Source: a virus
Lineage: Duplodnaviria > Heunggongvirae > Uroviricota > Caudoviricetes
Direction: 5' to 3' (one strand)
Length of the DNA: 64,000 nt
Virus record (IMG/VR): IMGVR_UViG_3300027375_000001
This document shows, piece after piece, positions 30,473-54,488 of this stretch. The notes beneath the pieces were generated by a model. It was not told the DNA's origin and made no database searches. It saw only the letters and a list, made by a program, of their open reading frames with translations. Each line of letters begins with the position of its first letter. The stretch's first letter is position 1. The translations under genes were made by a program, and so were the position numbers.

Positions 30473-30550
30473 GGTGGCTATAACAGGACTCGAACCTGCA
30501 AAACTTGCATCCTCAATGCAATACGTTTACCAATTACGTCATATAGCCAT
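30473..30550 (-). tRNA. class I (short variable arm) tRNA with anticodon GAG (leucine codons CUC/CUU); CCA encoded
   Basis: Hand-folded cloverleaf: ggctata/tatagcc acceptor, D arm acgt-aattggtaa-acgt, anticodon arm ttgca-UUGAGGA-tgcaa, T arm gcagg-ttcgagt-cctgt, A73. Confidence 0.5.
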
Positions 30551-30555
30551 GAAAT

Positions 30556-30636
30556 GGTAGGAGCGACAGGATTCGAACCTGTGATGATTGCCAGTGTGTA
30601 AAACTGGTGCGTTCGGCCGCTACGCTAACACTCCCA
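30556..30636 (-). tRNA. tRNA-Val(UAC)
   Basis: Anticodon arm ccagt-UUUACAC-actgg, T arm acagg-ttcgaat-cctgt, CCA encoded. Acceptor and D pairing are slightly irregular, so the ends are +/-2 nt. Confidence 0.5.
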
Positions 30637-30644
30637 TAAAAAGT

Positions 30645-30718
30645 ACCCGCAGAGGGATTCGAACCCCCAACCTCTTGATCCTAAGTCAAGTGCCTCTACC
30701 GATTGGGCTATGCGGGCA
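30645..30718 (-). tRNA. class I tRNA with anticodon UAG (leucine codons CUA/CUG); no encoded CCA
   Basis: gcccgca/tgcgggt acceptor (G1.U72), anticodon arm cttga-CUUAGGA-tcaag (G37), T arm ggggg-ttcgaat-ccctc, 5-nt variable loop, A73. Confidence 0.5.
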
Positions 30719-30868
30719 TATGTAAATTGTCGAGACCTGATCCATCGTGTGCACTCGAACACACCTCCCGCACCGATTAACTGCGGTGTTCAACCTATAA
30801 ACTTCGAAATGGGGGTCTCAGTTAGTCTTTAGTATCTTTCGAACGATACCATTAACTATTCGCGAATT

Positions 30869-30946
30869 GGTTCCCTGGGATGGAATTGCACCATCTTCGT
30901 TCGCTTCACAGGCGAAGACATTAACTAAATATGCTACACAGGGCAT
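30869..30946 (-). tRNA. tRNA-His(GUG)-like, possibly degenerate
   Basis: Good T arm (gatgg-tgcaatt-ccatc), ...ccagggaACCA 3' end, and anticodon arm ttcgc-CUGUGAA-gcgaa. The 5' acceptor strand pairs poorly (5 of 7). Confidence 0.3.
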
Positions 30947-31023
30947 GGTAGCCACGATGGGACTCGAACCCATAGAAAACAGTTTTTGAGACCGTCACGT
31001 TTACCAATTACATCACGTGGCTA
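30947..31023 (-). tRNA. class I tRNA with anticodon CAA (leucine codon UUG); CCA encoded
   Basis: Perfect 7-bp acceptor agccacg/cgtggct, D arm atgt-aattggtaa-acgt, anticodon arm acggt-CUCAAAA-actgt, T arm atggg-ttcgagt-cccat, A73. Anticodon arm and T-loop closely resemble tRNA-Trp. Confidence 0.55.
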
Positions 31024-31033
31024 TATGGAAAAT

Positions 31034-31108
31034 GGTACCCAGTAGAGGAATCGAACCTCTATTCGCGGTTTAGAAGACCGCTGTCCTATCCGTTGAACGA
31101 ACTGGGCA
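31034..31108 (-). tRNA. tRNA-Arg(UCU)
   Basis: Anticodon arm gcggt-CUUCUAA-accgc, T arm gaggt-tcgattc..., CCA encoded. Confidence 0.6.
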
Positions 31109-31111
31109 TAT

Positions 31112-31186
31112 GGTGGGCAGTAGAGGAATCGAACCCCTGTCTCAACGTCCGTAGCGTTGCGTACTATCCGTTATACGAACCACCCA
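31112..31186 (-). tRNA. tRNA-Arg(ACG)
   Basis: Anticodon arm caacg-CUACGGA-cgttg, T arm agggg-ttcgatt-cctct, CCA encoded. Confidence 0.6.
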
Positions 31187-31257
31187 AATTAACGAGGCCG
31201 TCTCTCCGGCTGTCACGCACTTTACCAGGTGGCGTTCGCCTATTCAGATCAGTATAA

Positions 31258-31746
31258 TCAGAACTTAAACCCAACACCTGCTCGAATTGCAACGACGCCA
31301 TCCTTGGCATCATTCTCTACAAGGAAATTGTAGGTTGCATCTGCAAACAGATTGAGGGTATTAGTAAGACTATAACTTAGACCGCCACCGGTTCGTACGG
31401 TCCATTGATCTGTATCGAATTCATAAGCACCGCCCGCCAAGCCATATACAGAAAGCTTCTCTCCTACGGGGACGTAATAGAGAAGATTACCACCTACGGT
31501 ATAAAGGTCATCTGCTACACCAACAGTAAGTTCTGCTTTCAGATCGCCTACAACTGGAGCTTCAAGACTCAAACCTCCACCGACTGTTTCATCACCATTG
31601 TCAAGGACCACAGTTGTGAATGCCTTTGAAACCCATCCTGTGGATCCAACTTCTGGTGTAGCAGGGGTTGGAGGTGTTACAGGAGAGCCTGCAAATGCCA
31701 TTTGTGTTGCGAGTGCCATTACTAGTGATAGTAGTTTTGTTTTCAT
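31258..31746 (-). CDS. outer-membrane beta-barrel protein (OmpA/OmpW-like small porin fold)
   Basis: Cleavable signal peptide (MKTKLLSLVMALATQMAFA), alternating hydrophobic beta-strand pattern, Gly/Tyr-rich, and a C-terminal ...GVGFKF ending in Phe typical of OMPs. Confidence 0.5.
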   Translation of the reverse strand: MKTKLLSLVMALATQMAFAGSPVTPPTPATPEVGSTGWVSKAFTTVVLDNGDETVGGGLSLEAPVVGDLKAELTVGVADDLYTVGGNLLYYVPVGEKLSVYGLAGGAYEFDTDQWTVRTGGGLSYSLTNTLNLFADATYNFLVENDAKDGVVAIRAGVGFKF

Positions 31747-31845
31747 AATTTGATTTTGTTGAAGATGTTATCTTCGTTTATATTATACTTTGTGGTGTGT
31801 GTTAAATCAACATCTTATTGTTTGTTTTTTAAAAATCAAAAGAAA

Positions 31846-32190
31846 TTAATGCCTCTTTCTTTTCATCATAACTGCTACCCCCGCTGCTGTCATCAGGACT
31901 CCTGGGTTCGTTGGTTCGGGTGCGCTAATATGTTGCCCATAGCAATCCCATTGATTTCCATTCCGCACACAAATACCATCAGGCCCGTCAGAACCTAATG
32001 TATTTAATCGAAAAGAATTTTGCCCATTAACTCCCTGCACTAAAAGGAACCCGATGCTTAAAATTAGTGCCATGTTGAATTTGCTTTTACACCAAATATA
32101 GAATTTAGTAGGAGCTACCATCAAAGAAGTGCGTTGGGGCTCTTCTTGTTTAGATTGATTGTTTGTAGTGGTTGTATGTATAGTGTGCAT
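31846..32190 (-). CDS. secreted small Cys-containing protein (start probably an internal Met)
   Basis: Internal signal-like segment MALILSIGFLLVQGVNG followed by a Cys-containing mature region. Confidence 0.25.
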   Translation of the reverse strand: MHTIHTTTTNNQSKQEEPQRTSLMVAPTKFYIWCKSKFNMALILSIGFLLVQGVNGQNSFRLNTLGSDGPDGICVRNGNQWDCYGQHISAPEPTNPGVLMTAAGVAVMMKRKRH

Positions 32191-32367
32191 GTTTTAAAAT
32201 TGGAGGATGGCTTGAGAATCGCACTCAACAACAAACGTTTTGCAGACGTAGCCCTTCACTAGCCGGGTCGCCATCCAAATTGTGCGGTTCTCTCCCGCAG
32301 TCACTAGTTGAACTGATGTTGGATATCCTCGACATGCGTCCGTCTAGTCGTCCATGCCAAATTTAAA

Positions 32368-32889
32368 TTAGTAGCTCAATACGTATCTGATAGTCACCCT
32401 CTCACCAGGAATCTCGAAGCTTGAGACGTGTTCTGGAGGATCTCCATCTTCGCCTTCCAATTCGATGTCATCTGTACCGTTATAACCTTCAAGGTCATCA
32501 TACAAGTCAGAGATAGCTGATTCGATATATGACGGAAGATAACGCGAATTGTCTTCTTCTGGATTGATGTATCTTCGCCCTCGTTTAATATATGCATCAT
32601 ATTCAACTACAGTCTTGTCACCTGAAGGTCGTGTATATACACCCCCGGGAGTTAATGCTATTGCACCATTTCGATCATATCGTTTGAGAATGTTTTCAAA
32701 TGCTTGAATTGCTTTGGATGTCTTCGCTGGTGCAGTTAGTTCTGCTTCGATAAAAATCGAATATTCTTCAGAGTCGGATGCATTTGATGCGATTTGATCT
32801 GCGTACGCTTCACAGATGAGAGATTGGTCGTTAGTGGGCATAAGAGTATTTAAGGTTAAGTAAGTTGATGTTCTGCAAGTTTGGTACAA
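32368..32889 (-). CDS. hypothetical acidic protein
   Basis: 173-aa ORF. Confidence 0.3.
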   Translation of the reverse strand: MYQTCRTSTYLTLNTLMPTNDQSLICEAYADQIASNASDSEEYSIFIEAELTAPAKTSKAIQAFENILKRYDRNGAIALTPGGVYTRPSGDKTVVEYDAYIKRGRRYINPEEDNSRYLPSYIESAISDLYDDLEGYNGTDDIELEGEDGDPPEHVSSFEIPGERVTIRYVLSY

Positions 32890-33152
32890 AAATCCTTGAT
32901 TGCTTTGTTATATAGTTCCCTGAATGTATCTTCTCCAATATCTCCTTCAACAAGATAATCGATATGATGTACTATATCTGCAGCAGTATCTAATATAATC
33001 ATTGCTACTTCAAACTTATCTAAAATATCAGTAGGATACTTCCGAGCCTGCCTGAATTCATTTGGAACTTCATTGCTATTAATAAGGGACATGATTTCCC
33101 TCGAAATGTCAGTCAATCGAAATTGATTGTAATCAAAATGCCCTCCACTCAT
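32856..33152 (-). CDS. hypothetical protein
   Basis: 98-aa ORF. Confidence 0.3.
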   Translation of the reverse strand: MSGGHFDYNQFRLTDISREIMSLINSNEVPNEFRQARKYPTDILDKFEVAMIILDTAADIVHHIDYLVEGDIGEDTFRELYNKAIKDFCTKLAEHQLT

Positions 33153-33319
33153 ATTTTAGAAATCAATGATTGCATCGAGTGCGATAACCAATGCTTTGAT
33201 AATCAATGCAAAGTACAATATAACTAAAAATCCAATGCTTGTGAAATAAATCAATTTTGGTATTGTAGTGATAATTGAGTCTATATCCATTATGTTGATT
33301 TGGTTGATTTGGTTGAATG

Positions 33320-33395
33320 TGGTGCGGTAGACAGGACTCGAACCTGCAACATTCTGAGTGGAAGTCAGACGCCCTACCAATTGAGCTACTACCGC
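33320..33395 (-). tRNA. tRNA-Gly(UCC)
   Basis: gcggtag/ctaccgc acceptor, D arm agctcaattggtagggc, anticodon arm tctga-CUUCCAC-tcaga, T arm gcagg-ttcgagt-cctgt, CCA encoded. Confidence 0.7.
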
Positions 33396-33419
33396 GTAAA
33401 CAATTATACAACGGGGCTG

Positions 33420-33812
33420 TTAGCCTATCAAGTCTTTTGTTGATGCTCTTGCGTAAAATGTGAACGTAATCGGAATTAGTTTCCATGTGTCGAGTACTTT
33501 TATAATCGGTCTCGTTTCACAATATCCGTCCCACCCCTCGACTACTTCAAATTCATCAGTTTCTTCCATGTCATATTCTTTCTTGCGAAGAATGAAAGAA
33601 CCCGATTCTTCGTCATAAGATATTGCTTTGTTGTATTCTTCCAGAAACCACAGATCAGCATCAACATACAGAGTGTTTGTGCCTTTAAAAAATTTAAGAA
33701 GGTTTTGTTTGAATCTACACTCCCGAACATCAGTACAGTCAGGATGCTTGTATTTTACTATAAACCTTGGATCTGATAATAGTTTATGGAAATGATTAAA
33801 AGATATATTCAT
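33420..33812 (-). CDS. hypothetical protein
   Basis: 130-aa ORF directly upstream (in transcription order) of the DNA ligase. Confidence 0.3.
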   Translation of the reverse strand: MNISFNHFHKLLSDPRFIVKYKHPDCTDVRECRFKQNLLKFFKGTNTLYVDADLWFLEEYNKAISYDEESGSFILRKKEYDMEETDEFEVVEGWDGYCETRPIIKVLDTWKLIPITFTFYARASTKDLIG

Positions 33813-33814
33813 AC

Positions 33815-34951
33815 TTAGAATCCTTCATATCTTACGATTTTCATTTTACCAAATCTAGGAATCCCCTGTGCAGTCTTTCCTTGGTATTTTACTGTGGCTA
33901 GCATCCCTTTGACTTTTTCGCGGTCATTAAATAAGCCACGTGCATATTCTTCGTTGCCAATAACTCCAGTAGAAAAAGCTCTACCGTCTTCAAGAGCCAA
34001 TACTGCTTCTGTGGCTAGTCCGGTGCGATTACCTTGACCTTCTTTGATTTCGACAATATTGAATTCTTCGTCTTGGAATTGTTTGAGTTTCAGAAGTCCT
34101 TTCGATCTTTTATTCTCATAGATAGATGTAGTATCACGAATCATGATACCTTCATATCCATCTTCCACACACTCACTTTCATACTCCGCAATAGCATCGC
34201 TGCCATTTACGAACAATGTAGTAACCATGTTTATATGCTCATTATTACAAAGCCGTAATTGCTTTGTAACCAATTGCCAATTTCTTTCGTCGAAAGTTAG
34301 TTGTCGGTTATTTAGATCAACAAGATCATAAACATGATATTGAATATCTTTGCATTCCGCAGTGTGTTCAATTTGACGAACTAACCCCGAAATCTTTTCA
34401 AACGGAATGGTATGATTGTAAAGCTCACCATCTAGAATAAAAGATTGATTTTCTTTGAATAAATCTTCAAGAGCATTTTCAATATGGGTGCATGAAGTGA
34501 TCTGTTTGCCCTTTCGACTTTGGAGATATACTTTACCATCTTTAAGATACGCAATGCATCTATGTCCGTCTAGTTTGGGCTGAAGAGCCAATGGTGTACC
34601 AGGTGCTAGAGGGTGCTGATCCCATTTATGAGCAAGCATCGGTTCAAAGAAATTCGCACCAGATGATTCCAATGTCTCGCTGAATCCGGCGTCCTTTTTC
34701 TTGCGATAGATAGATTCAGCCTTTTTCAGAGCTTGTTCTTCTGCCGTAGTTGCGTTTGCCTTACCAACATTCTTTGCGAAACAAATAGTCCATTGCGAAG
34801 TAGTCAGCTTGCCTCCTACTTGCCCTTCAATCGTTCGATACTTGTCACCTTCTACTTCAATGCTCCACTGAAGAGGTGCGCCTTTGGTACTGTATTTGTA
34901 AAGTGTTTGCATTGGATTTAATATGTTGAAATTGAATTGCGAGGACTCCAT
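33815..34951 (-). CDS. ATP-dependent DNA ligase
   Basis: Nucleotidyltransferase motif I KxDGxR (QPKLDGHRCIAY) with an adenylation-domain-like context. 378 aa. Confidence 0.7.
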   Translation of the reverse strand: MESSQFNFNILNPMQTLYKYSTKGAPLQWSIEVEGDKYRTIEGQVGGKLTTSQWTICFAKNVGKANATTAEEQALKKAESIYRKKKDAGFSETLESSGANFFEPMLAHKWDQHPLAPGTPLALQPKLDGHRCIAYLKDGKVYLQSRKGKQITSCTHIENALEDLFKENQSFILDGELYNHTIPFEKISGLVRQIEHTAECKDIQYHVYDLVDLNNRQLTFDERNWQLVTKQLRLCNNEHINMVTTLFVNGSDAIAEYESECVEDGYEGIMIRDTTSIYENKRSKGLLKLKQFQDEEFNIVEIKEGQGNRTGLATEAVLALEDGRAFSTGVIGNEEYARGLFNDREKVKGMLATVKYQGKTAQGIPRFGKMKIVRYEGF

Positions 34952-35145
34952 TCGTTTAAATCTACTATTTCATACCAATCACATGGCATATCTCCAATAG
35001 TATAACCACACCTACCGTAGTTATTTTCTTCCATTGTTTCAACCATATTGAGAGCCTCTTCGTATGAATCATACGAATCAACCCAATTGCTTGTACCCGC
35101 ACCAGGATAATAGTCGTGGCCTGCTATCAAAAGATATCTTTTCAT
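34918..35145 (-). CDS. hypothetical protein
   Basis: 75-aa ORF. Confidence 0.25.
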   Translation of the reverse strand: MKRYLLIAGHDYYPGAGTSNWVDSYDSYEEALNMVETMEENNYGRCGYTIGDMPCDWYEIVDLNEWSPRNSISTY

Positions 35146-35167
35146 TTTTAGTATTGGTTATTGAAAT

Positions 35168-35242
35168 TGGTTGTCCCGACTGGAATCGAACCAGCTACCT
35201 ATTCCTTATCAGGGAAGTGCTCTACCGATGAGCTACGAGACA
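35168..35242 (-). tRNA. tRNA-Ile(GAU)
   Basis: D arm gctc-atcggta-gagc, anticodon loop CUGAUAA, T arm tagctgg-ttcgatt-ccagt, CCA encoded. Confidence 0.6.
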
Positions 35243-35248
35243 ATAAAG

Positions 35249-35344
35249 TGGCGGAGTGCACTGGACTCGAACCAGATGGCTTTTTAGCAAAACCACAATC
35301 TGTTTAGCAAACAGTTCCAACGCGCCTGTTTGGTTTACACTCCG
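35249..35344 (-). tRNA. tRNA-Ser(GCU), class II (long variable arm)
   Basis: cggagtg/cactccg acceptor, anticodon loop UUGCUAA, long extra arm, T arm ctgg-ttcgagt-ccag, CCA encoded. Confidence 0.55.
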
Positions 35345-35353
35345 TATTGAAAT

Positions 35354-35428
35354 TGGTATCGCCGAGGGGAATCGAACCCCCATTTGAGGAATGAAAATCC
35401 TCCGTCCTAACCATTAGACGACGGCGAC
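35354..35428 (-). tRNA. tRNA-Glu(UUC)
   Basis: gtcgccg/cggcgat acceptor, D arm cgtctaatggttaggacg, anticodon arm gagga-UUUUCAU-tcctc, T arm ggggg-ttcgatt-cccct, CCA encoded. Confidence 0.7.
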
Positions 35429-35433
35429 ATAAG

Positions 35434-35509
35434 TGGTGGGTTGACTCGGATTCGAACCGAGATGATCTGTTCTTCAGACAGACGCATGAACCATCATTGC
35501 TATCAACCC
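35434..35509 (-). tRNA. tRNA-Phe(GAA)
   Basis: gggttga/tcaaccc acceptor, anticodon arm tctgt-CUGAAGA-acaga, T arm ctcgg-ttcgaat-ccgag, CCA encoded. Confidence 0.7.
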
Positions 35510-35790
35510 GAAATTGGTTTGTCTTTCATGATTTCTATTAGACCTTCATCGATAAGCTTATTGAATATCTCTTTGAATTGTTTTTCAAATTCTATTTGAT
35601 CTTTCTCGGCAATATAATCAAGGAACATGTTGTATACAGAAGCACATGCGCACGCAACGTAATAAGTATTAAAATTTAATCCCGAGTCAGGTGCTTGAAA
35701 TCTAATTAACGGTCTATTCCCTTGTTTGCCATTTTTATCTGTAACTTTGACATTTGCAATGTAGCAGAATGGTTCTATTAGTTGTTCCAT
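35503..35790 (-). CDS. hypothetical protein
   Basis: 95-aa ORF between tRNA sub-clusters. Confidence 0.3.
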   Translation of the reverse strand: MEQLIEPFCYIANVKVTDKNGKQGNRPLIRFQAPDSGLNFNTYYVACACASVYNMFLDYIAEKDQIEFEKQFKEIFNKLIDEGLIEIMKDKPISG

Positions 35791-36039
35791 TTAATTGAAC
35801 AATGGCGAGGTTTCTACTTTTTCAAATTTAGTGATGTACTCATCCAGTACACTAATATATTCTCGAGCACTTTGAATGTCCCGTTGCAATTCTTCAATTC
35901 TGGTTTTATCCTCTGTGCCACATGCCATCCATTCACTATTTTCAATGCGAAGAAGATATTCTGACTTGATGTGAATAAGTTCTTTACGAATGATGTAGTT
36001 GACTAAGTCGTCTGCACATTGGCGTTGAGTTTTCTTCAT
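35791..36039 (-). CDS. hypothetical protein
   Basis: 82-aa ORF. Confidence 0.3.
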   Translation of the reverse strand: MKKTQRQCADDLVNYIIRKELIHIKSEYLLRIENSEWMACGTEDKTRIEELQRDIQSAREYISVLDEYITKFEKVETSPLFN

Positions 36040-36103
36040 GTTATATATTCACATCGGGTGTTGTTATTAGCAACTGCTTTGTGTTTTGATCGCAGTTATA
36101 AAT

Positions 36104-36178
36104 TGGCTCCTCAGGAAGGTTACGCTCCTTCATAATCCCGATTAACAGTCGGGTGCATTGCTAGTCTGCCACTGAGGA
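36104..36178 (-). tRNA. tRNA-Asn(GUU) with a non-canonical T-loop
   Basis: tcctcag/ctgagga acceptor, anticodon arm cccga-CUGUUAA-tcggg, T arm gaagg-AGCGUAA-ccttc (no TPsiC), CCA encoded. Confidence 0.45.
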
Positions 36179-36247
36179 ATATTAAAAATTAAATTAAATT
36201 ATTACTTATATACTATAGCAATATATCAGAGCGTTGACTGTATAAAT

Positions 36248-36322
36248 TGGTGCCTCCGATGGGACTCGAACCCATAACCTTCAGATTAAAAGTCTGTTAT
36301 TCTACCATTGAATTACAGAGGC
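36248..36322 (-). tRNA. tRNA-Lys(UUU)
   Basis: gcctctg/cggaggc acceptor, D arm attcaatggtagaat, anticodon loop CUUUUAA, T arm atggg-ttcgagt-cccat, CCA encoded. Confidence 0.65.
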
Positions 36323-36331
36323 ATGTGCAGG

Positions 36332-36655
36332 TTAAACTTCTATTGAAATTTGATTGTGTGTAGGCCAGAATCTTTTTTTGTTATCTACCTGAATGTCGCG
36401 ATCTACTTTAATGTAAGATCTACCCCAGCCTCTCCATATATGCCCTTGATTCATTTTCCTAGCATGTACTTTGAATGGTTTTTTTGGTGTCATCTTTCTG
36501 CTGATGGCGTAATGATAACACCCGATTTGAATTCCAGGATGGCCGTTTAGTTGATCGGCGTTGTCTAAACAATATGCATATAAAGAGTAATATGCTTCAC
36601 CAGCATTTACATCAATCCACTCATATGTGGGTTTGTTGCGATCTTTTTTAGTCAT
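36332..36655 (-). CDS. hypothetical protein (start trimmed to Met at 36655)
   Basis: The listed ORF extends to 36898 through two tRNA genes. The Met at 36653-36655 (MTKKDRNKPTYEW...) gives a non-overlapping 108-aa CDS. Confidence 0.35.
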   Translation of the reverse strand: MTKKDRNKPTYEWIDVNAGEAYYSLYAYCLDNADQLNGHPGIQIGCYHYAISRKMTPKKPFKVHARKMNQGHIWRGWGRSYIKVDRDIQVDNKKRFWPTHNQISIEV

Positions 36656-36673
36656 TTTTGTTTTCGTTGAAAT

Positions 36674-36769
36674 TGGTACTCCTGGCCGGATTCGAACCGA
36701 CAACCGCGCCCTAATCTGGGGCATACGAAAGGTATAAGCTTTCCGCTCTACCAATTGAGCTACAGGAGC
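36674..36769 (-). tRNA. Leu-type class II-like tRNA carrying an anticodon loop CUUAUAC (anticodon UAU, AUA codon)
   Basis: gctcctg/caggagt acceptor, D arm gctc-aattggta-gagc, anticodon arm gaaag-CUUAUAC-ctttc, ~25-nt extra region (gtatgccccagattagggcgcggtt), T arm gtcgg-ttcgaat-ccggc, A73, CCA encoded. Confidence 0.4.
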
Positions 36770-36783
36770 ACATATGTTGAAAT

Positions 36784-36858
36784 TGGTTGCGGGAGATGGA
36801 CTTGCACCACCGACCTCCTGGTTATGAGCCAGTTGAGCTACTACTGCTCTATCCCGCA
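36784..36858 (-). tRNA. tRNA with anticodon CAU (Met or Ile2-type), T-loop UGCAAGU
   Basis: tgcggga/tcccgca acceptor, D arm gagc-agtagta-gctc, anticodon loop CUCAUAA, T arm ggtgg-tgcaagt-ccatc, CCA encoded. Confidence 0.55.
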
Positions 36859-36915
36859 ATGTGTAGTTAATATTAACACGTGGTTGTGTTGTTATCAACT
36901 TGTTTATTTATAAAT

Positions 36916-36992
36916 TGGTCTGGATGGTGGGATTCGAACCCACGACCTTTTGATCCCAAATCAAATGTTCTACCAAGCTGAACTACATCCAG
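36916..36992 (-). tRNA. tRNA-Pro(UGG)
   Basis: ctggatg/catccag acceptor, D arm gttcagcttggtagaac, anticodon arm tttga-UUUGGGA-tcaaa, T arm cgtggg-ttcgaat-cccac, CCA encoded. Confidence 0.7.
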
Positions 36993-37651
36993 ATAAAATT
37001 ATTTTTGCAATACTCATTAATTACTCTCATGTCTGGCCACGTGATCGTTTGCGACTTCCACGAAATTGGCCTGTACCATATGAATTCAATGTTGTTATTG
37101 ACACAATCACTTAACGAGAAATTCAATATATTTCTTATTTCTTCTTTAGTTAGATTTGTTTTATTTGAGTAATTTTCTATTAAAAATTTTTCATAGTACC
37201 TAACATCATAGTTTGGCTGCAATGCGAAAAATTTAAGCATCTCATCAATTTTCCCACCTATAATAATATCTAAAAAATAAGTGGTAGATGTCTCTATGCC
37301 AGCGATAGCTGTTAGCTTTTCGCGATACGACTTCGCCAGTATCTCTAAATATCTATCATAATCTTGACATAGTATATCAAAACGAGTCCTTAATACATAT
37401 TCATATCCGTTTTCTTTAAGATACTTCAACCCATTATGTACAGTAATAAACTGTGGTTTATATATTTCTTGTTGTTTTACACTATTGTAAATGATTTTAA
37501 AATTGTTGTTTTTTAATTTGTCGACATATTCAGGTGATTCATTTTCCCATATTGATGCTATTTTATTTGTCTGATTTTTGGTCTGTTCAATTAGAACATC
37601 AATGGTGTCACCGTGTACGTTTCCTGTGAATAAAATTGCAGTGTTTGGCAT
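36983..37651 (-). CDS. hypothetical protein (start trimmed to avoid a tRNA)
   Basis: The listed start at 37687 overlaps a tRNA(CAU) gene. An internal Met (MPNTAILFTGNVHGD) at 37649-37651 gives a 222-aa CDS. Confidence 0.35.
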   Translation of the reverse strand: MPNTAILFTGNVHGDTIDVLIEQTKNQTNKIASIWENESPEYVDKLKNNNFKIIYNSVKQQEIYKPQFITVHNGLKYLKENGYEYVLRTRFDILCQDYDRYLEILAKSYREKLTAIAGIETSTTYFLDIIIGGKIDEMLKFFALQPNYDVRYYEKFLIENYSNKTNLTKEEIRNILNFSLSDCVNNNIEFIWYRPISWKSQTITWPDMRVINEYCKNNFIWM

Positions 37652-37660
37652 ATAAATTAG

Positions 37661-37732
37661 TACCTCCGGAAGGACTTGCACCTTCACCGTGTTGCTTATG
37701 AAACAACCATTCTACTTTTGAATTACAGAGGC
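37661..37732 (-). tRNA. tRNA with anticodon CAU (second Met/Ile2-type), T-loop UGCAAGU; no encoded CCA
   Basis: gcctctg/cggaggt acceptor, anticodon arm gttgt-UUCAUAA-gcaac, T arm gaagg-tgcaagt-ccttc. Confidence 0.5.
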
Positions 37733-37737
37733 GTGTG

Positions 37738-37811
37738 GGGCTCAAAGTGGGAATCGAACCCACATCCCTTCCATACCAAGGAAATACACTCACCATTGTG
37801 CTATTCGAGCC
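37738..37811 (-). tRNA. tRNA-Thr(GGU)
   Basis: ggctcga/ttgagcc acceptor, anticodon arm tttcc-UUGGUAU-ggaag, T arm gtggg-ttcgatt-cccac. Confidence 0.55.
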
Positions 37812-37820
37812 AAAAGAAAT

Positions 37821-37894
37821 TGGAAGTCCCTGATGGAATTGAACCATCATAGTCGGAATCAAAATCCGATGCATTACCATTATGCTAAAGGACC
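37821..37894 (-). tRNA. tRNA-Gln(UUG)
   Basis: D arm gcat-aatggta-atgc, anticodon arm tcgga-UUUUGAU-tccga, T arm gatgg-ttcaatt-ccatc, CCA encoded. Confidence 0.65.
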
Positions 37895-37902
37895 ATATAA
37901 AA

Positions 37903-37995
37903 TGGCGGGTAGCTGAGGACTTGCACCCCAACCTAGGTTCGCTAGATCAATCCGCTTTCGAGACGGTTGCAGTACGCTTGTCTGCTTAACTACCC
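37903..37995 (-). tRNA. tRNA-Ser(CGA), class II, T-loop UGCAAGU
   Basis: gggtagt/gctaccc acceptor, anticodon loop CUCGAAA, long extra arm (gatctagcgaacctagg), T arm tgggg-tgcaagt-cctca, G73, CCA encoded. Confidence 0.5.
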
Positions 37996-37997
37996 AT

Positions 37998-38074
37998 TGG
38001 TGCGGCTGACAGGATTCGAACCTGCGACAATATCCTTGGCAAGGATGCGCTCTACCAAATTGAGCTACAACCGC
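37998..38074 (-). tRNA. tRNA-Gly(GCC)
   Basis: gcggttg/cagccgc acceptor, D arm agctcaatttggtagagc, anticodon loop UUGCCAA, T arm gcagg-ttcgaat-cctgt, CCA encoded. Confidence 0.65.
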
Positions 38075-38080
38075 ATAAGA

Positions 38081-38154
38081 TGGAGGCCTATCCCAGAATT
38101 GAGCTGGGGACTATTCATTACGAGTAAATTGTTTTACCACTAAACTAATAGGCC
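38081..38154 (-). tRNA. tRNA-Thr(CGU)
   Basis: ggcctat/ataggcc acceptor, anticodon arm attta-CUCGUAA-tgaat, T arm cccag-ctcaatt-ctggg, CCA encoded. Confidence 0.5.
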
Positions 38155-38159
38155 GAAAT

Positions 38160-38235
38160 TGGCACGTGCTGTCAGAATCGAACTGACCCAGTCGGATTTG
38201 GAGTCCAACTCGCCTGCCTTGGGACATTAGCACGT
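38160..38235 (-). tRNA. tRNA-Trp(CCA)
   Basis: Perfect acgtgct/agcacgt acceptor, anticodon arm ttgga-CUCCAAA-tccga, T arm gtcag-ttcgatt-ctgac, CCA encoded. Confidence 0.65.
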
Positions 38236-38244
38236 AAAAAGAAA

Positions 38245-38318
38245 TGGAGGTCCTGTCCGGAGTCGAACCGGAATCAACGCATTACAAGTGCGTCGTTTTA
38301 CCATTAAACTAAAAGACC
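38245..38318 (-). tRNA. tRNA-Thr(UGU)
   Basis: D arm gttt-aatggtaa-aac, anticodon arm acgca-CUUGUAA-tgcgt, T arm tccgg-ttcgact-ccgga, CCA encoded. Confidence 0.65.
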
Positions 38319-38462
38319 GAAATGTGCTCCACTAAGAGTTAGCTATTTTCCAGTGAGCACTGTTATCATCTACAAACATGCACAAGCCCATGTTTGACCA
38401 GAGCCATATAAGGGATAGCTTGTGAGGATTTCCTCATAAAGTGTGGATAGTTGATGCTTAAT

Positions 38463-38555
38463 TGGCGGGTAACTGAGGACTTGCACCCCAACCTAGGATC
38501 ACTAGATCAATCCGCTTTCAAGGCGGTTACAGCGCGCTTGTCTGTTTAGCTACCC
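38463..38555 (-). tRNA. tRNA-Ser(UGA), class II, T-loop UGCAAGU
   Basis: Paralogous to the 37903 gene. Anticodon loop CUUGAAA, long extra arm, CCA encoded. Confidence 0.5.
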
Positions 38556-38561
38556 ATAAAT

Positions 38562-38637
38562 TGGCGGTGCTGACGGGATTCGAACCCGCATCATCTATCG
38601 TGACAGGATAGCAATTTGCCGATTAAAATACAACACC
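38562..38637 (-). tRNA. tRNA-Asp(GUC)
   Basis: ggtgttg/cagcacc acceptor, anticodon arm ctatc-CUGUCAC-gatag, T arm gcggg-ttcgaat-cccgt, G73, CCA encoded. Confidence 0.65.
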
Positions 38638-38643
38638 AGAAAG

Positions 38644-38736
38644 TGGCGGATGAATGAGGACTTGCACCCCAACCTAGGATCACTAGATCAATCTGTCTTC
38701 CAAACAGATGCAGCACGCTTGTCTGCTTAATCATCC
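38644..38736 (-). tRNA. tRNA-Ser(GGA), class II, T-loop UGCAAGU
   Basis: Anticodon arm tctgt-UUGGAAG-acaga, long extra arm (gatctagtgatcctagg), CCA encoded. Confidence 0.5.
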
Positions 38737-38740
38737 AAAT

Positions 38741-38817
38741 TGGTGGAGATGGTGGGAATCGAACCCACAACAGTCTGATTGCAAATCAGTCTCGCTAGCC
38801 TTAGTACATGCACCCCC
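38741..38817 (-). tRNA. tRNA-Ala(UGC)
   Basis: gggggtg/catctcc acceptor with G3.U70, anticodon loop UUUGCAA, T arm gtggg-ttcgatt-cccac, CCA encoded. The D arm is irregular. Confidence 0.5.
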
Positions 38818-38827
38818 ATTTGAAATT

Positions 38828-38915
38828 GGTGGGTCCTCAAGGAGTTGAACCTTCTGCCGAACCGCCTGACATAACACGGCAATGGATTTACAGTCCACCG
38901 TCAGGAAAAGAACCC
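38828..38915 (-). tRNA. tRNA-Tyr(GUA), class II
   Basis: gggttct/aggaccc acceptor, anticodon arm gtgga-CUGUAAA-tccat, long extra arm, T arm gaagg-ttcaact-ccttg, CCA encoded. Confidence 0.6.
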
Positions 38916-49666: not shown

Positions 49667-49678
49667 GTAGTTTCTATA

Positions 49679-49852: not shown

Positions 49853-50189
49853 TGATTTCGGAAATGCAACGATATATGTCTATCATGAAGATGGGCACTA
49901 TGCCGAACGAAGTTTCTCCAGAAGAAGCTACGACACATTAACAGCACGATATGATAGGTTCCAAGGCTGGGTGTCTCCATATAGAGATATTGTATATTGG
50001 AATCGAGTCTATCGCATAGGCAATAACAGACCAACAGTGGTGCCCGACCATATCGTCGTATGGAAACAAGGGGATGCAACTGAGTATAAATACAACAAAG
50101 TTGTCATGTCGTTTGTCAATAAAATTTTGTCATGGATCCCACGAAAATGGGCAGTTCGACATAAAAGATGGCGCTGGCTTAAATGCTAA
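49839..50189 (+). CDS. hypothetical protein
   Basis: 116-aa ORF. Confidence 0.3.
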   Translation: MNPLNDFGNATIYVYHEDGHYAERSFSRRSYDTLTARYDRFQGWVSPYRDIVYWNRVYRIGNNRPTVVPDHIVVWKQGDATEYKYNKVVMSFVNKILSWIPRKWAVRHKRWRWLKC

Positions 50190-50229
50190 AATAGTTGATA
50201 CACATCACACCTCGAGCTATATTAACTAC

Positions 50230-51255
50230 ATGAAGCTCGCCTCTATTGAAACCATCGCTGCTGTCAAACATCATCCCAATGCAGATTCGTTGGATCTCGT
50301 TGGAGTTCTAGGATATGAATGCATCACTCTTAAAGACAAATATAAGGTAGGTGATCGTGTAGTCTTTATCCAGCCCGATACTGTTCTTCCAGATAAGCCC
50401 TGGGCTGAAATCTTTAAGAAAAAGTCGTCGCGAGTCAAAGCTATCAAGCTTCGAGGCGAATGGTCGTTTGGTATTATCATGGGACTTACCGAAGTAGACT
50501 CGTTATTCGATCTTCAAAATGTCGAAGTTGGTACTGAGATTAGTTCCCATATTGGGGTATATAAGTACGACCCACCTGCTCCAACCTCTCTGGATGCTAA
50601 AGGGAATCTGCCGTATAGTCTGGTGAAGACTGACGAAGAACGATTCCAGAACCTTATCGGGTTTCTCCCGTATGGTGAAAAGGTTGATGTCACCCTGAAG
50701 ATTGATGGGCAAAGTGCTACTTACTACGCACGCAAAGATCCGTCGACCGGAGAATGGTCTACTGGTGTTACTAGTCGCAATCTAGAAATCAAACCAGAAA
50801 CTAATAACAACTATACCAAGATCGTGAAGAAATACAATATTCTCGAGAAGCTTCTTGAGTATTGCAAACGGAACGACGTATCACTTGCTCTTCGAGGTGA
50901 AATCTATGGAGGCAATATCCAAAATTTCAGCAAGAACCCACACAGCAAAGGTCCCTTGGACTTTGCCGTATTCAGTGTCTTCAATCTTAATACCCTGAAG
51001 TATGAAAAGGAAGGCGACGCTGATTACTCCCCGAACGTGGCGGCTGTATTACAAATTCCTCATGTGCCGTTTGTAAACGACAATTACACTGTTGACTTTG
51101 AACACTCTGTGAGGCCGTTGCTATCCGAAGATATGATTAACTTCTACCAAAAAGGAATCAATCAAATCGATGGCAAACCCTTTGAAGGTGTAGTAGTTCG
51201 ACACAGCAAAGGTTCGTTCAAGATCATCAATCTCGATTACGACTCAAACAAATAA
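50230..51255 (+). CDS. RNA ligase with an N-terminal tRNA-binding OB (Myf-like) domain (Rnl5/DraRnl-like architecture)
   Basis: The start was moved to Met 50230. The N-terminus KHHPNADSLDLVGVLGYECITLKDKYKVGDRVVFIQPDTVLP matches the tRNA-binding OB-fold consensus (HPNADKL..V.VDvG......IVsGA.N...GD.V.VA..Ga.LP). It is followed by the nucleotidyltransferase motif I KxDG (TLKIDGQSATYYAR). Confidence 0.5.
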   Translation: MKLASIETIAAVKHHPNADSLDLVGVLGYECITLKDKYKVGDRVVFIQPDTVLPDKPWAEIFKKKSSRVKAIKLRGEWSFGIIMGLTEVDSLFDLQNVEVGTEISSHIGVYKYDPPAPTSLDAKGNLPYSLVKTDEERFQNLIGFLPYGEKVDVTLKIDGQSATYYARKDPSTGEWSTGVTSRNLEIKPETNNNYTKIVKKYNILEKLLEYCKRNDVSLALRGEIYGGNIQNFSKNPHSKGPLDFAVFSVFNLNTLKYEKEGDADYSPNVAAVLQIPHVPFVNDNYTVDFEHSVRPLLSEDMINFYQKGINQIDGKPFEGVVVRHSKGSFKIINLDYDSNK

Positions 51256-51417
51256 GCATAAATGTTTGCTGATAAGCAAACCCGATTGTATTGTATTAAA
51301 CAGAAAAGCAATGCCAACCACAATACCAACAAAGCCGCCGGCACCAACTAAACCAGCGAAACCGTTCAATCCAATCCGTAAACCAAGCCCAGGGCAACAC
51401 CCGAAACCAAAAGCGTA

Positions 51418-52485: not shown

Positions 52486-52516
52486 GCAACAACACACCAC
52501 GTAGTATATTTGTTAT

Positions 52517-52771
52517 ATGAAATGCAACTGCGGCAATCCAATCGAACAAGAGCGTCTTGAATTCAAATTGAGCACCTGCGTCCGATGTGCTCGAAGTCAA
52601 CCTCAAGAGCGACCTCGCGGCATTATGTTGTACGGTCACAAGACCGCCGGAGAAATCCAGATTGTCTCTCAAGAGGCATTTCAGGATTATCGAAAGTATA
52701 ATCCTTGTGGTCGGTATACTGGTCGTGGATCGGGGCTTCACCGTGTTTCTAGATCCACAGCCAGTATTTAA
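52517..52771 (+). CDS. TraR/DksA-type C4 zinc-finger protein
   Basis: CNCGNPIEQERLEFKLSTCVRCARS matches CxxC-(17)-CxxC of the TraR/DksA finger. Confidence 0.4.
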   Translation: MKCNCGNPIEQERLEFKLSTCVRCARSQPQERPRGIMLYGHKTAGEIQIVSQEAFQDYRKYNPCGRYTGRGSGLHRVSRSTASI

Positions 52772-52775
52772 TAAT

Positions 52776-53030
52776 ATGAATAATATGAATGATGCAAAGG
52801 TGTTTACAACTGAGGAATTGATAGGCAAAGAACTTACGACAAAACTCAAGAAGGACATTGATAAATACGAGATTCGAGGTGAGAAGGCAGACCAGATCAT
52901 GCAGTGGGCATTACTGACTTTGATAAACGCAAACATGCTCGAGATGATCCGCTCTGGTGAAGTAGATGTCGTTAATATAGAACCAGTCGAAATCCAAACA
53001 TACGAAGCGGTAATAGCCAATCCAATATGA
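52776..53030 (+). CDS. hypothetical protein (start moved to 52776)
   Basis: The listed ORF starts at 52587 and overlaps the zinc-finger gene in another frame. ATG (MNNMNDAKVF) follows directly after that gene's stop. Confidence 0.3.
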   Translation: MNNMNDAKVFTTEELIGKELTTKLKKDIDKYEIRGEKADQIMQWALLTLINANMLEMIRSGEVDVVNIEPVEIQTYEAVIANPI

Positions 53031-53398
53031 AATACGATCCTGTTGATTATGCTAGAGACGGTGTCGATAACGCATTTCGTTATCTCGGTCAAAAGGTAAA
53101 TGGCGAATTTGCTTACACCATTTTCGATCCAGTGCCGACAATTGGTCGAGATGAAATGTCTCGCAAATTTATTAACCATCTTGCTGAAACAGGAACACTC
53201 TATTGTGATCCACAAACCCTAAAAGAAAGTAAGTATCGTCGCCATCCATTCTTTGAATGGCTTCGAGATGCAATGCCAGATCTTAAATTCATGATGGTAA
53301 CCTTTATGGACCCGTACTCATACCTCGTTACTGATGACGATGACATGCAAGAAATCACAAATGAAGCTGTCGACGAAGAAACAGAAGATGAGGATTGA
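53027..53398 (+). CDS. hypothetical acidic protein
   Basis: 123-aa ORF with an ATGA overlap. Confidence 0.3.
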   Translation: MKYDPVDYARDGVDNAFRYLGQKVNGEFAYTIFDPVPTIGRDEMSRKFINHLAETGTLYCDPQTLKESKYRRHPFFEWLRDAMPDLKFMMVTFMDPYSYLVTDDDDMQEITNEAVDEETEDED

Positions 53399-53428
53399 TT
53401 AAAACACAACCCACTATTATAATATAAC

Positions 53429-53731
53429 ATGACAAACATCCGCATCATTCTCAACAACAAAGTCTACGAAGAAAATCAAAGAGACTACCAGATTGTGACG
53501 CAGGAATTTGAGTTTAATCTTCCTGCCAAATATGATGGAGAAGACGCTTGCGAAGCTGCATTTGCCATTACTAATGCACCCGAAGATGCACTAAGTGAGG
53601 AATGGGCTGCGATCGCGAGAGAGTATCGTCCGTTGCGTTCGGTATCAATTGGCGATGCTGTAGTGGTCAATGGCGTTAAATACTTCTGCATGAATGTCGG
53701 GTGGAGGCCGCTGACGAAATCGTCAGATTGA
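53429..53731 (+). CDS. hypothetical protein
   Basis: 100-aa ORF. Confidence 0.3.
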   Translation: MTNIRIILNNKVYEENQRDYQIVTQEFEFNLPAKYDGEDACEAAFAITNAPEDALSEEWAAIAREYRPLRSVSIGDAVVVNGVKYFCMNVGWRPLTKSSD

Positions 53732-53968
53732 GAATTGTGCTTAGCTAGTCGCCATGCTGTTAAGTAACAGTATATGGATTACGAAAGCATAAGCCAATTC
53801 TTAATGGAAACCTTTCATCTTACTGATTTCGAAAGAACTTGGTTGGAATCTAGATTCTCGCTGAGTGAAGACGATGAATCGATATGGTATAAAATCCTCA
53901 AGAAATATTATCTGACAAACTAAACAATATTTGATTAGATAACAACCACGAGGTATTGTATTATACAC

Positions 53969-54394
53969 ATGACACCAACAAACGATATCGTAGAGATTGC
54001 CAAACGCATTGCAATAAAGGCTCACGAAGGGCAATTTCGGCGAGATGGTGTTACTCCTTATATTAAACATCCCGAAGCTGTTGCATCGAGACTCACAGAC
54101 AATCCAGGTGTCGAAGCAGTGGCATGGCTTCATGATGTTCTGGAAGATACGTCAGTGACAGTCGAAGATCTACGAGATCAAGGGATTTCGAACCAAATCA
54201 TCGATATCGTCATCATGTTGACAAAAAAGAAAGACATTCCATACGACGAGTATATTAAAACCATTGCGTCGAACCGATTCGCAACAGAAGTCAAAATTGC
54301 AGACATGCTAGCAAATCTTAGTGATAGCCCAACAGAGGACCAAGTACTAAAGTATATGAAATCATTGCTTTATCTTCTCGACTCAAATAAATAA
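53969..54394 (+). CDS. (p)ppGpp hydrolase HD domain (small alarmone hydrolase, SpoT/Mesh1-like)
   Basis: AHEGQFRRDGVTPYIKHPEAVA...VAWLHDVLEDTSVTVEDL matches the SpoT/RelA hydrolase H..GQ.R..G.PY..HP...A and HD..EDT blocks. Confidence 0.6.
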   Translation: MTPTNDIVEIAKRIAIKAHEGQFRRDGVTPYIKHPEAVASRLTDNPGVEAVAWLHDVLEDTSVTVEDLRDQGISNQIIDIVIMLTKKKDIPYDEYIKTIASNRFATEVKIADMLANLSDSPTEDQVLKYMKSLLYLLDSNK

Positions 54395-54412
54395 ATCTAT
54401 CACACGAAACAT

Positions 54413-54488
54413 GGCCACGTAGTCCAATGGCAGAGGCAACGGACTTAAAATCCGTAGAGTGTCGGTTCGAGTCCGACCGTGGCTACCA
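54413..54488 (+). tRNA. class I tRNA with anticodon UAA (leucine codon UUA); exactly 76 nt with CCA
   Basis: ggccacg/cgtggct acceptor (G1.U72), anticodon arm acgga-CUUAAAA-tccgt, 5-nt variable loop agagt, T arm gtcgg-ttcgagt-ccgac, A73. The acceptor is almost identical to that of the CAA tRNA at 30947. Confidence 0.6.

Follow-up and report, generated by a model that had tools for sequence, protein, structure and literature searches.

A 64-kb window of phage DNA (the whole stretch analysed here, from a genome of ~197 kb) contains four tRNA genes that combine leucine anticodons with short variable loops, which raises the question of what kind of tRNA these genes encode. The initial annotation, which held tRNA-Leu to be class II everywhere outside metazoan mitochondria, saw in them either a special architecture (for example, escape from a host anticodon nuclease, or altered recognition by leucyl-tRNA synthetase, LeuRS) or tRNAs charged with another amino acid. 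We find that the four genes are real but ordinary members of a known, little-described tRNA type that occurs in hundreds of phages and in many Actinobacteria. Most likely they are functional type I leucine tRNAs that would be charged with leucine by the LeuRS of the host.

Four short-arm tRNA genes with leucine anticodons

Gene calling in the 64-kb window with ARAGORN and with the Rfam model RF00005 (gathering score 29) yielded four cloverleaves of 75-77 nt with the anticodons GAG, UAG, CAA and UAA (Table 1). The two methods agree with the initial annotation that there are four short-arm cloverleaves with leucine anticodons and A73, and the ARAGORN coordinates lie within 1-2 nt of those given there. 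(Note that no strand had been given for the GAG, UAG and CAA genes; all three are on the minus strand.) With RF00005 the genes score 65.4 (GAG), 66.0 (UAG), 57.9 (CAA) and 62.3 bits (UAA), and in the ARAGORN structures their variable loops measure 5, 5, 4 and 5 nt, respectively. A73 is present in all four genes; three of them encode CCA, and the remaining one, UAG, terminates in AC. The anticodon loops (UUGAGGA, CUUAGGA, CUCAAAA and CUUAAAA, in the same order) are each 7 nt long, contain U33 and hold the leucine anticodon in the standard register 34-36, such that the ARAGORN check of the register upheld the leucine anticodons at all four loci. Moreover, every one of the genes retains G18G19 and a canonical UUCGARU T loop, together with the signature U8-A14, A15-U48, G18G19, A20a and A73. 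The near-identical acceptors that had been pointed out were verified, and belong to the CAA and UAA genes (AGCCACG and GGCCACG).

Jointly, and as had been proposed, the anticodons assigned by ARAGORN cover all six leucine codons, with GAG reading CUC/CUU, UAG reading CUA/CUG, CAA reading UUG, and UAA reading UUA/UUG; all six codons are in use in the window. Three of the genes are part of the main tRNA cluster, and the UAA gene stands isolated, ~15.6 kb from that cluster.

Table 1. Positions and properties of the tRNA genes and associated features in the window
Feature	Coordinates	Strand	Source and details
tRNA-Leu(GAG), type I	30472..30548	-	ARAGORN; 77 nt with CCA; type B D arm ACGU-AAUUGGUAA-ACGU; variable loop GUUUU; G37; A73; R1 69.7 bits; class II Leu HMM 27.5 bits; 21/21 pairs canonical
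tRNA-Leu(UAG), type I	30643..30717	-	ARAGORN; 75 nt, CCA not encoded; type A D arm GCCC-AAUCGGUAG-AGGC, 3-bp D stem, C13/A22 mismatch; variable loop AGGUU; G37; A73; R1 83.1 bits; class II Leu HMM 32.6 bits
tRNA-Leu(CAA), type I	30946..31022	-	ARAGORN; 77 nt with CCA; type B D arm AUGU-AAUUGGUAA-ACGU; A37; A73; acceptor AGCCACG; R1 70.5 bits; class II Leu HMM 32.6 bits; 21/21 pairs canonical
tRNA-Leu(UAA), type I	54413..54488	+	ARAGORN; 76 nt with CCA; type A D arm GUCC-AAUGGCAG-AGGC; A37; A73; acceptor GGCCACG; R1 77.8 bits; class II Leu HMM 26.3 bits
Main phage tRNA cluster	30472..38915	-	Contains three of the four Leu genes; 28 ARAGORN tRNAs plus Asn(GUU) at 36107-36177, Cys(GCA) at 32202-32276 and the Tyr-like gene
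tRNA-Ser(GCU), class II, long arm kept	35249..35343	-	ARAGORN; 95 nt
Further tRNA-Ser genes	37903-37995, 38463-38555, 38644-38736		ARAGORN
Non-canonical tRNA-Tyr-like gene	38828..38915	-	GUA anticodon loop, long extra region, A73-CCA, aberrant D arm
RNA ligase	50074-51255

Search for a long-arm tRNA-Leu

Neither ARAGORN nor Rfam detected a class II tRNA-Leu in the window, with the Rfam threshold set either to the gathering score or to E<=1. Similarly, a profile HMM of class II tRNA-Leu detected no long-arm gene in the window: it scores at most 32.6 bits there, and on the four short genes only, and real long-arm genes in control loci score 50-62 bits with the same profile. The earlier statement that the window has no class II tRNA-Leu thus holds by all three approaches. 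Further candidates were rejected. An intron-hidden tRNA-Leu(UAA) of the cyanobacterial type was considered at a group I intron match at ~56.0-56.2 kb, where the exons give a CAU anticodon, and two weak tRNA-like matches proved to be the Tyr-like gene (38831-38915) and the Cys gene (32204-32276).

None of the four genes has the variable arm stem-loop of >=10 nt of a canonical class II tRNA-Leu. Nor do they have the reduced or degenerate D and T loops of metazoan mitochondrial tRNAs, given their G18G19, their UUCGARU T loops and their Rfam scores of 58-66 bits. The long arm had been said to persist in the Tyr tRNA and all four Ser tRNAs of the cluster. This is correct for the four Ser tRNAs, which ARAGORN calls at 93-95 nt with the long arm kept; what had been taken for the Tyr tRNA is a non-canonical tRNA-like gene with a GUA anticodon loop, which ARAGORN does not call at default settings and which scores 26 bits against the tRNA-Sec model. 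(Of the other cluster members, the Asn gene has an odd T loop.)

Probable leucine identity of the four genes

Short variable loops are the norm for isotypes other than Leu, and the anticodon loop of the CAA gene, CUCAAAA, is one indel from the Trp loop CUCCAAA. It could therefore be argued that the four genes are anticodon-shifted tRNAs of other isotypes (Trp shifted to CAA, for instance) that carry another amino acid and serve recoding or ambiguous decoding. We consider this highly improbable, on several grounds. A D-loop motif combined with A73 occurs in 27/31 Leu tRNAs and in 1/198 non-Leu tRNAs, the motif having been refined after the Leu set was viewed. (A15-U48 and A73 were dropped as single discriminators, because both are common among the other tRNAs of this phage.) An anticodon-masked covariance model built from 17 type I Leu tRNAs of other phages (R1) aligns with the four genes over their full length, as does the Rfam model, and ranks them top among the ~30 tRNAs of the window, with a margin of the GAG tRNA over Gly(UCC) of only 1.6 bits. 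The class II tRNA-Leu profile also has its best window matches in these genes, at 26-33 bits vs 14 bits for the next window tRNA.

Sequence neighbours point the same way. Leu tRNAs account for 6/6 of the nearest neighbours of the UAA gene in the cultured-phage set, 4/6 for UAG, 4/6 for CAA and a mixed 2/6 for GAG; in a set of type B tRNAs (see below), all six nearest neighbours of the GAG gene are Leu. The UAG gene is 77% identical to the tRNA-Leu(UAG) of Gordonia phage Keelan and up to 84% identical to Leu tRNAs of IMG/VR, and the UAA gene shares 85-86% identity with type I tRNA-Leu(UAA) genes on the chromosomes of Nocardia and Gordonia. The closest IMG/VR relatives of the CAA gene are Leu(CAA) genes, with identities of 0.78-0.80. 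The resemblance of this gene to tRNA-Trp that had been suggested was not borne out: the six window tRNAs nearest to it do not include Trp, its nearest relatives elsewhere are Leu, and all four Leu genes have A73 whereas the window Trp tRNA has G73. In none of the four is the body closest to that of another isotype. Finally, the phage uses its leucine codons in the standard way, with Leu codons falling on conserved Leu positions of NrdA (20/27 conserved columns). The D-arm signature with A73, the class II profile and the NrdA columns thus make the earlier proposal of charging with another amino acid unlikely. Judged by their short loop, anticodon register, D-arm signature with A73 and membership of a Leu-specific family, the four genes classify as type I tRNA-Leu.

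Two widespread families defined by the D arm

By their D arms the four genes fall into two families, with UAG and UAA belonging to type A and GAG and CAA to type B. The type A pattern was found in at least 120 IMG/VR contigs, where the 125 tRNAs among the matches listed are all Leu and 74-79 nt long, and in at least 120 bacterial genomes, mostly Actinomycetota among the matches listed, with a single tRNA gene at 100/120 of the bacterial loci listed. With the anticodon left unconstrained, ~97% of type A matches are Leu. The type B pattern, likewise searched with an unconstrained anticodon, was found in at least 120 IMG/VR contigs; among the matches listed, 124/124 are Leu, 74-77 nt long, with A73. 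Note that these prevalence figures are lower bounds rather than frequencies, because the comparison loci were gathered by similarity. Both families are widespread in phages, and type A is found on Actinobacterial chromosomes too. That both are essentially Leu-only argues further against charging with another amino acid. The earlier interpretation was right that the short set is complete and specific to Leu, and is not supported in its choice between a special architecture and another amino acid, as the genes belong to two widespread Leu-specific families.

Across 77 distinct type B sequences, compensatory changes affect 16/21 pairs and 95% of pair cells are canonical, which points to selection on the short-arm fold. 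This bears on whether the genes might be decaying or non-functional, or tRNA-like decoys, after loss of the arm. Other degenerate tRNA-like genes do occur in the window (the Tyr-like gene and the Asn gene with its odd T loop), and Vibrio phage KVP40 has annotated tRNA pseudogenes. Nevertheless, we regard decay as very unlikely: apart from the family-wide compensatory changes, neither GAG nor CAA has a non-canonical pair among its 21, the Rfam scores are high, G18G19 and the T loops are intact, and the window has no other tRNA-Leu despite Leu making up 7.9% of its codons.

Distribution and origin of the short form

Searches of phage records gave 142 matches to the UAA tRNA of the window, and short tRNA-Leu genes also occur in phages of Providencia, Gordonia, Streptomyces, Ochrobactrum, Xanthomonas, Myxococcus, Bacillus and Sinorhizobium/rhizobia. 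Complete short-only Leu sets are present at three IMG/VR loci (L053, L133 and L285). Megablast and tblastn found no close relatives among cultured phages, and a DNA-ligase scan of IMG/VR turned up a single distant locus. Homologues of NrdA lie at four loci (L017-L020) without nearby tRNAs, and synteny could not be used there because of this lack. The DNA-ligase route led to loci L021 and L022, of which L021 is the closest relative with a tRNA cluster that was recovered. Its tRNA-Leu(UAG) has a long arm. We rejected a recent in-place deletion of the arm because this gene resembles E. coli leuW and not the UAG gene of the window. The short genes probably arose by tRNA gene turnover or horizontal transfer, rather than by recent deletion in this phage.

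Proposed function and the question of defence

We envisage that the four genes would be transcribed with the phage's other tRNAs and then matured, three of them with an encoded CCA, and that the host LeuRS would charge the products with leucine. [quoted passage not shown] In this way the phage could supply its own leucine decoding through a set for all six codons. No aminoacyl-tRNA synthetase was found in the window by Pfam scans of 30 ORFs; the part of the ~197-kb genome beyond these 64 kb could still carry a LeuRS of the phage, or a long-arm tRNA-Leu. Hints to the host point toward a Gram-negative bacterium: one domain is OMP-like, and the DNA ligase has homologues in Alphaproteobacteria phages.

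Experimental precedent comes from Streptomyces coelicolor, whose LeuRS leucylates its own type I tRNA-Leu(CAA) and does not charge a human mitochondrial tRNA (Fan et al. 2019, NAR, PMC6614811). For its own tRNA-Leu, the LeuRS of E. coli can do without the long arm (PMC9976931). In vitro, the E. coli enzyme did not leucylate the type I tRNA-Leu(CAA) of Streptomyces (PMC6614811). Because of this failure, acceptance by a proteobacterial LeuRS is not to be assumed; a type I tRNA-Leu would need a LeuRS able to accept the short arm. There may accordingly be a grain of truth in the earlier suggestion of altered LeuRS recognition.

Could the short arm instead be an anti-defence trait, in that a host toxin or nuclease reads the long arm, or host tRNA-Leu, and arm-less phage copies escape and keep translation going? 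The replacement of the whole Leu isoacceptor set beside an RNA ligase is typical of phages that counter tRNA damage, and short tRNA-Leu genes are very frequent in phage tRNA clusters. We think it unlikely, however. Literature searches found no defence system directed specifically against tRNA-Leu or against its class II form, and the toxin MenT3 prefers Ser rather than Leu; in these same phages the long arm is retained by the Ser tRNAs, 43 of 90 large phage tRNA clusters combine short with long Leu genes, and the relative at L021 uses a long-arm Leu(UAG). Moreover, the short form needs no defence context, because it is an ordinary chromosomal gene in Actinobacteria. Escape from a nuclease thus stays conjectural, nothing specific having been found in its favour. 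A broader version, which we also judge doubtful, is that type I tRNA-Leu in phages is selected rather than neutral, loss of the arm hiding the tRNA from readers of class II tRNAs (toxins or nucleases anchored on the variable arm, or cross-recognition by SerRS and TyrRS). If this were true, phages could replace the whole tRNA-Leu pool of a host, Proteobacteria included; a counterpoint is that E. coli LeuRS failed on the one actinobacterial type I tRNA-Leu tested.

On our preferred reading, that of functional leucine tRNAs, the appropriate annotation for the four genes is ordinary tRNA-Leu, without a flag for recoding or mischarging. The consequence for this window is small; more broadly, the finding has a modest but genuine bearing. 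The sole paper that we found on the subject terms bacterial type I tRNA-Leu rare and Streptomyces-specific (PMC6614811), whereas each D-arm type occurs in at least 120 IMG/VR contigs and the short form in at least 120 bacterial genomes, phages of Proteobacteria being among the matches; literature searches found no account of type I tRNA-Leu in phages. At stake is whether LeuRS accepts a wider range of tRNAs than has been supposed, or whether phages use a special mechanism.

Comparison with known systems

The Streptomyces work (PMC6614811) and the type I genes of phages and Actinobacteria refute the view that all tRNA-Leu outside metazoan mitochondria belongs to class II. The S. coelicolor tRNA-Leu(CAA) shares with the window genes a short-loop cloverleaf with A73, a Leu anticodon, and D and T loops of canonical form (PMC6614811); its D arm is of type A, like those of the UAG and UAA genes, whereas the GAG and CAA genes have the type B arm. 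It is a single chromosomal type I isoacceptor beside four of type II, whereas in the window all four are type I and phage-borne. Leucylation has been demonstrated by experiment for this tRNA and is predicted for the window genes.

Metazoan mitochondrial tRNA-Leu(UUR/CUN) resembles the window genes in its short variable loop, and A73 and A14 serve as its identity elements (PMC9976931). It has a dedicated LeuRS, however, and its D and T loops are degenerate and AT-rich, where the window genes have a canonical G18G19 and T loops reading UUCGA. In class II tRNA-Leu (E. coli leuW, leuQPV and leuZ; phages T4 and T5), A73 is likewise present and the D arm follows the same order, A14 A15 Y Y G18 G19 Y A20a R A22, in most cases with a D stem of 3 bp; the difference lies in the variable arm, which measures 9-12 nt or more there and 4-5 nt in the window genes.

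The phage examples are closest in arrangement. In Vibrio phage KVP40 (AY283928), tRNA-Leu-1/2/3 are all short with a type A D arm, and in the T5-like Providencia phage PR1 (KY363465) both tRNA-Leu genes are short with a type B D arm; the Leu genes of the two phages are 77-78 nt long, and in each phage the Ser and Tyr tRNAs are long. KVP40 lacks a GAG isoacceptor and PR1 has UAA and UAG only, whereas the window brings together four isoacceptors for six codons and both D-arm types.

Four tRNA genes with leucine anticodons have short variable loops

ARAGORN identified 29 tRNA genes in the window, four of which have Leu anticodons. These four score 58–66 bits with the general Rfam tRNA model (gathering score 29), and their parsed structures have standard acceptor (7-bp), anticodon (5-bp), and T (5-bp) stems. 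A variable loop of 4–5 nt, A73, and an anticodon loop of 7 nt with U33 are common to all four; position 37 is G in the readers of CUN codons and A in the readers of UUR codons. CCA is encoded in three of the four genes, and the 3′ end of the UAG gene is AC. The four tRNA-Ser genes called by ARAGORN in the window are 93–95 nt long. The initial annotation had described short-arm cloverleaves with the same four anticodons at the correct loci, with exact ends 1–2 nt off; three of the four lie on the minus strand. Its observation of a short-arm Leu set is real and was carefully made.

That the window holds no class II tRNA-Leu, as had also been claimed, was borne out by each search. ARAGORN, which detected long-arm tRNA-Leu in T4, T5, E. 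coli, and other loci, found none in the window (64 kb of a genome of ~197 kb), nor did Rfam at the gathering score or at E ≤ 1. Moreover, a profile HMM built from 24 bacterial and phage long-arm tRNA-Leu gave 50–62 bits for genuine long-arm genes in control loci and a maximum of 32.6 bits over the window, where its matches were confined to the four short genes. Inspection by eye led us to reject three loci with weak tRNA-like matches as hidden tRNA-Leu genes: one is Tyr-like with a GUA anticodon, one is tRNA-Cys(GCA) with U73, and one has a CAU anticodon and is split by a group I intron.

Coordinates of tRNA genes and other features in the window
Feature	Position	Strand	Remarks
tRNA-Leu(GAG)	30472-30548	-	ARAGORN
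tRNA-Leu(UAG)	30643-30717	-	ARAGORN
tRNA-Leu(CAA)	30946-31022	-	ARAGORN
tRNA-Leu(UAA)	54413-54488	+	ARAGORN
Split tRNA, CAU anticodon (Met or Ile2 type)	55997-56279	+	intron about 56030-56236
Long-arm tRNA, UAU (Ile) anticodon	36674-36769	-	96 nt
Tyr-like tRNA, GUA anticodon loop	38828-38915	-	non-canonical
tRNA-Cys(GCA)	32202-32276	-	U73; T loop UGCGAUU; missed by ARAGORN
tRNA-Asn(GUU)	36107-36177	-	T loop AGCGUAA; Rfam 47.9 bits; missed by ARAGORN
Leu(UAG)-His spacer	30718-30867	-	150 nt
Group I intron matches	10600-10950	+	sub-threshold
NrdA ORF	21610-24955	-	735 aa; range also takes in the 362-aa ORF that follows
Tandem paralogous genes	58948-63484	+	167/146/125-aa units

Leucine identity of the short tRNAs

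The D arms of the four genes agree with those of long-arm tRNA-Leu from E. coli, T4, and T5 in the common layout A14 A15 Y Y G18 G19 Y A20a R, followed by A22. Two families are represented: type A (GYCC-AAYYGGYAG-AGGC; stem of 3 bp, mismatch C13/A22) by the UAG and UAA genes, and type B (AYGU-AAUUGGUAA-ACGU) by the GAG and CAA genes. The window, 12 phages, and E. coli supplied 229 distinct tRNAs, and the D-arm motif together with A73 was present in 27 of the 31 with Leu anticodons versus 1 of the other 198. (Note that single identity elements were rejected as discriminators because A15-U48 and A73 are common in other tRNAs of this AT-rich phage.)

Because the motif was refined after the Leu set had been inspected, three independent tests were added. 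In particular, an anticodon-masked covariance model, trained on 17 short tRNA-Leu that came from ten other phages, ranked the window Leu genes first to fourth of about 30 tRNAs (83.1, 77.8, 70.5, and 69.7 bits), with Gly(UCC) fifth at 68.1 bits; only these four genes gained in score over the general Rfam model. With the long-arm HMM the four genes reached 26–33 bits and the following tRNA 14 bits. When the type B D-arm pattern was run against IMG/VR, leaving the anticodon free, 124 of 124 tRNAs (118 contigs) among the matches listed had a Leu anticodon, a length of 74–77 nt, and A73, and with the type A pattern, the anticodon again free, about 97% of the matches listed were Leu. A suggested resemblance of the CAA tRNA to tRNA-Trp found no support in comparison with relatives. 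Compensatory changes occur at 16 of 21 base pairs in a set of 77 distinct type B sequences, with 95% of the pair cells canonical; the short-arm fold is therefore under selection.

In an alignment of the window NrdA with 96 homologues (46–51% identity), the window's Leu codons aligned with conserved Leu in 20 of 27 conserved columns, the remainder being mostly Ile or Met, and each of the six Leu codons occurs at conserved Leu columns. Leu accounts for 7.9% of window codons, with the six Leu codons each at 9–22%, and neither the alignment nor codon usage gave any sign of reassignment of Leu codons. The Leu-specific D-arm families, the model rankings, and the NrdA Leu columns make it very improbable that the four tRNAs are charged with another amino acid. 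The leucine-identity tests, the selection on the fold, and the coding evidence likewise make it very unlikely that the genes are pseudogenes or decoys. We consider it highly probable that they encode working leucine tRNAs, which the host LeuRS would charge with leucine by reading the elbow, D-loop elements, and A73. No synthetase gene was found when 30 ORFs of the window were scanned with Pfam, and some features hint at a Gram-negative host.

Other features of the window

Residues 641–732, at the end of the NrdA ORF, form an intein N-terminal splicing domain, which several homologues also have. A further ORF of 362 aa, lacking any Pfam match, comes next; together the two may be a split or disrupted intein-containing ribonucleotide reductase. 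The small tandem paralogues include two 167-aa copies with 81% identity between them, which are made of NNSLTSLEGAP-type repeats.

The CAU gene, missed by ARAGORN and the Rfam tRNA model, has the acceptor GGGGGUG/CGCCCCU, A73, and CCA; a group I intron of 207 nt follows U33 and splits it. This intron scores 40.3 bits with Rfam Intron_gpI, short of the gathering score (50), and resembles those reported from anticodon loops of bacterial tRNAs, such as Azoarcus tRNA-Ile(CAU). Further group I intron matches, both sub-threshold at 46.3 and 24.2 bits, fall between ORFs 8394–10667 and 10969–11769, possibly in or beside a tail or structural gene.

A long extra arm is normally absent from the Ile isotype. 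In the tRNA with a UAU anticodon, a class-I-type D arm and A73-CCA are combined with a variable region of 25 nt that includes a 4-bp stem; gapless homologues in Synechococcus phages (87–88% over 77 nt spanning the arm) include one annotated as tRNA-Ile. The initial annotation had a Tyr tRNA keeping its long arm: the Tyr-like gene does have a long extra region, with A73-CCA, but is not a canonical tRNA, its D arm being aberrant or missing and ARAGORN leaving it uncalled at default settings. CCUGAC/GUCAGG could pair across its anticodon arm, and its fold z-score is −0.41. A distant IMG/VR contig (L002, 7770–7845) encodes a 76-nt tRNA-Tyr(GUA) whose variable arm is short; thus, arm loss in phages is possible for Tyr too.

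With Cys(GCA) and Asn(GUU) added, the tRNA and tRNA-like anticodons of the window cover all 20 amino acids. By eye, the Leu(UAG)-His spacer contains tRNA-like pieces (T-arm-like GGUGUGUUCGAGUGCACAC and anticodon-arm-like CCGCAGUUAAUCGGUGCGG) and may be a decayed tRNA. ARAGORN reports a tmRNA-like gene in a related phage contig (L022, 15535–15971).

Origin and relation to known short tRNA-Leu

The nearest relative with a recovered tRNA cluster, contig L021 (DNA ligase 69% identical), has a long-arm Leu(UAG) that is like E. coli leuW and unlike the window UAG gene, and a recent in-place deletion of the arm is therefore ruled out as the source of the window genes. They are members of phage-borne lineages and were probably gained by tRNA gene turnover.

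Matches to the UAA tRNA were found in 142 phage records, and the type A pattern in at least 120 IMG/VR contigs and at least 120 bacterial genomes, among the matches listed mostly Actinomycetota with some Planctomycetota. Of the bacterial type A loci listed, 100 of 120 have a single tRNA gene; genes of Nocardia and Gordonia are 85–86% identical to the UAA tRNA. An RNA ligase gene in the window and toxin anchoring on the Ser variable loop are circumstantial points for the idea that the short arm evades a host defence, but many phages mix short and long Leu forms and Actinobacteria carry chromosomal short copies, both of which weaken that idea, and we regard it as unlikely.

For leucine charging of the four tRNAs by the host enzyme, it is relevant that in E. 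coli and in Aquifex LeuRS can dispense with the long arm on its tRNA-Leu (PMC9976931). The initial annotation was wrong to confine departures from class II tRNA-Leu to metazoan mitochondria, as type I forms are known in Streptomyces coelicolor and annotated in phages. The S. coelicolor type I tRNA-Leu(CAA), described by Fan et al. 2019 (PMC6614811), is a natural type I LeuRS substrate, leucylated in vitro by S. coelicolor LeuRS yet not by E. coli LeuRS. We found no paper that treats the phage short tRNA-Leu genes as a class. Complete short-only Leu sets occur in three other viral contigs (L053, L133, and L285), and L133 has the same four anticodons as the window. Among cultured phages, short Leu with long Ser and Tyr tRNAs are annotated in Vibrio phage KVP40 (three short Leu genes), in the T5-like Providencia phage PR1 (two), and in phages of Gordonia, Streptomyces, Ochrobactrum, Xanthomonas, Myxococcus, Bacillus, and Sinorhizobium. 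The four window genes are an instance of this known, widespread, and poorly described kind of tRNA.
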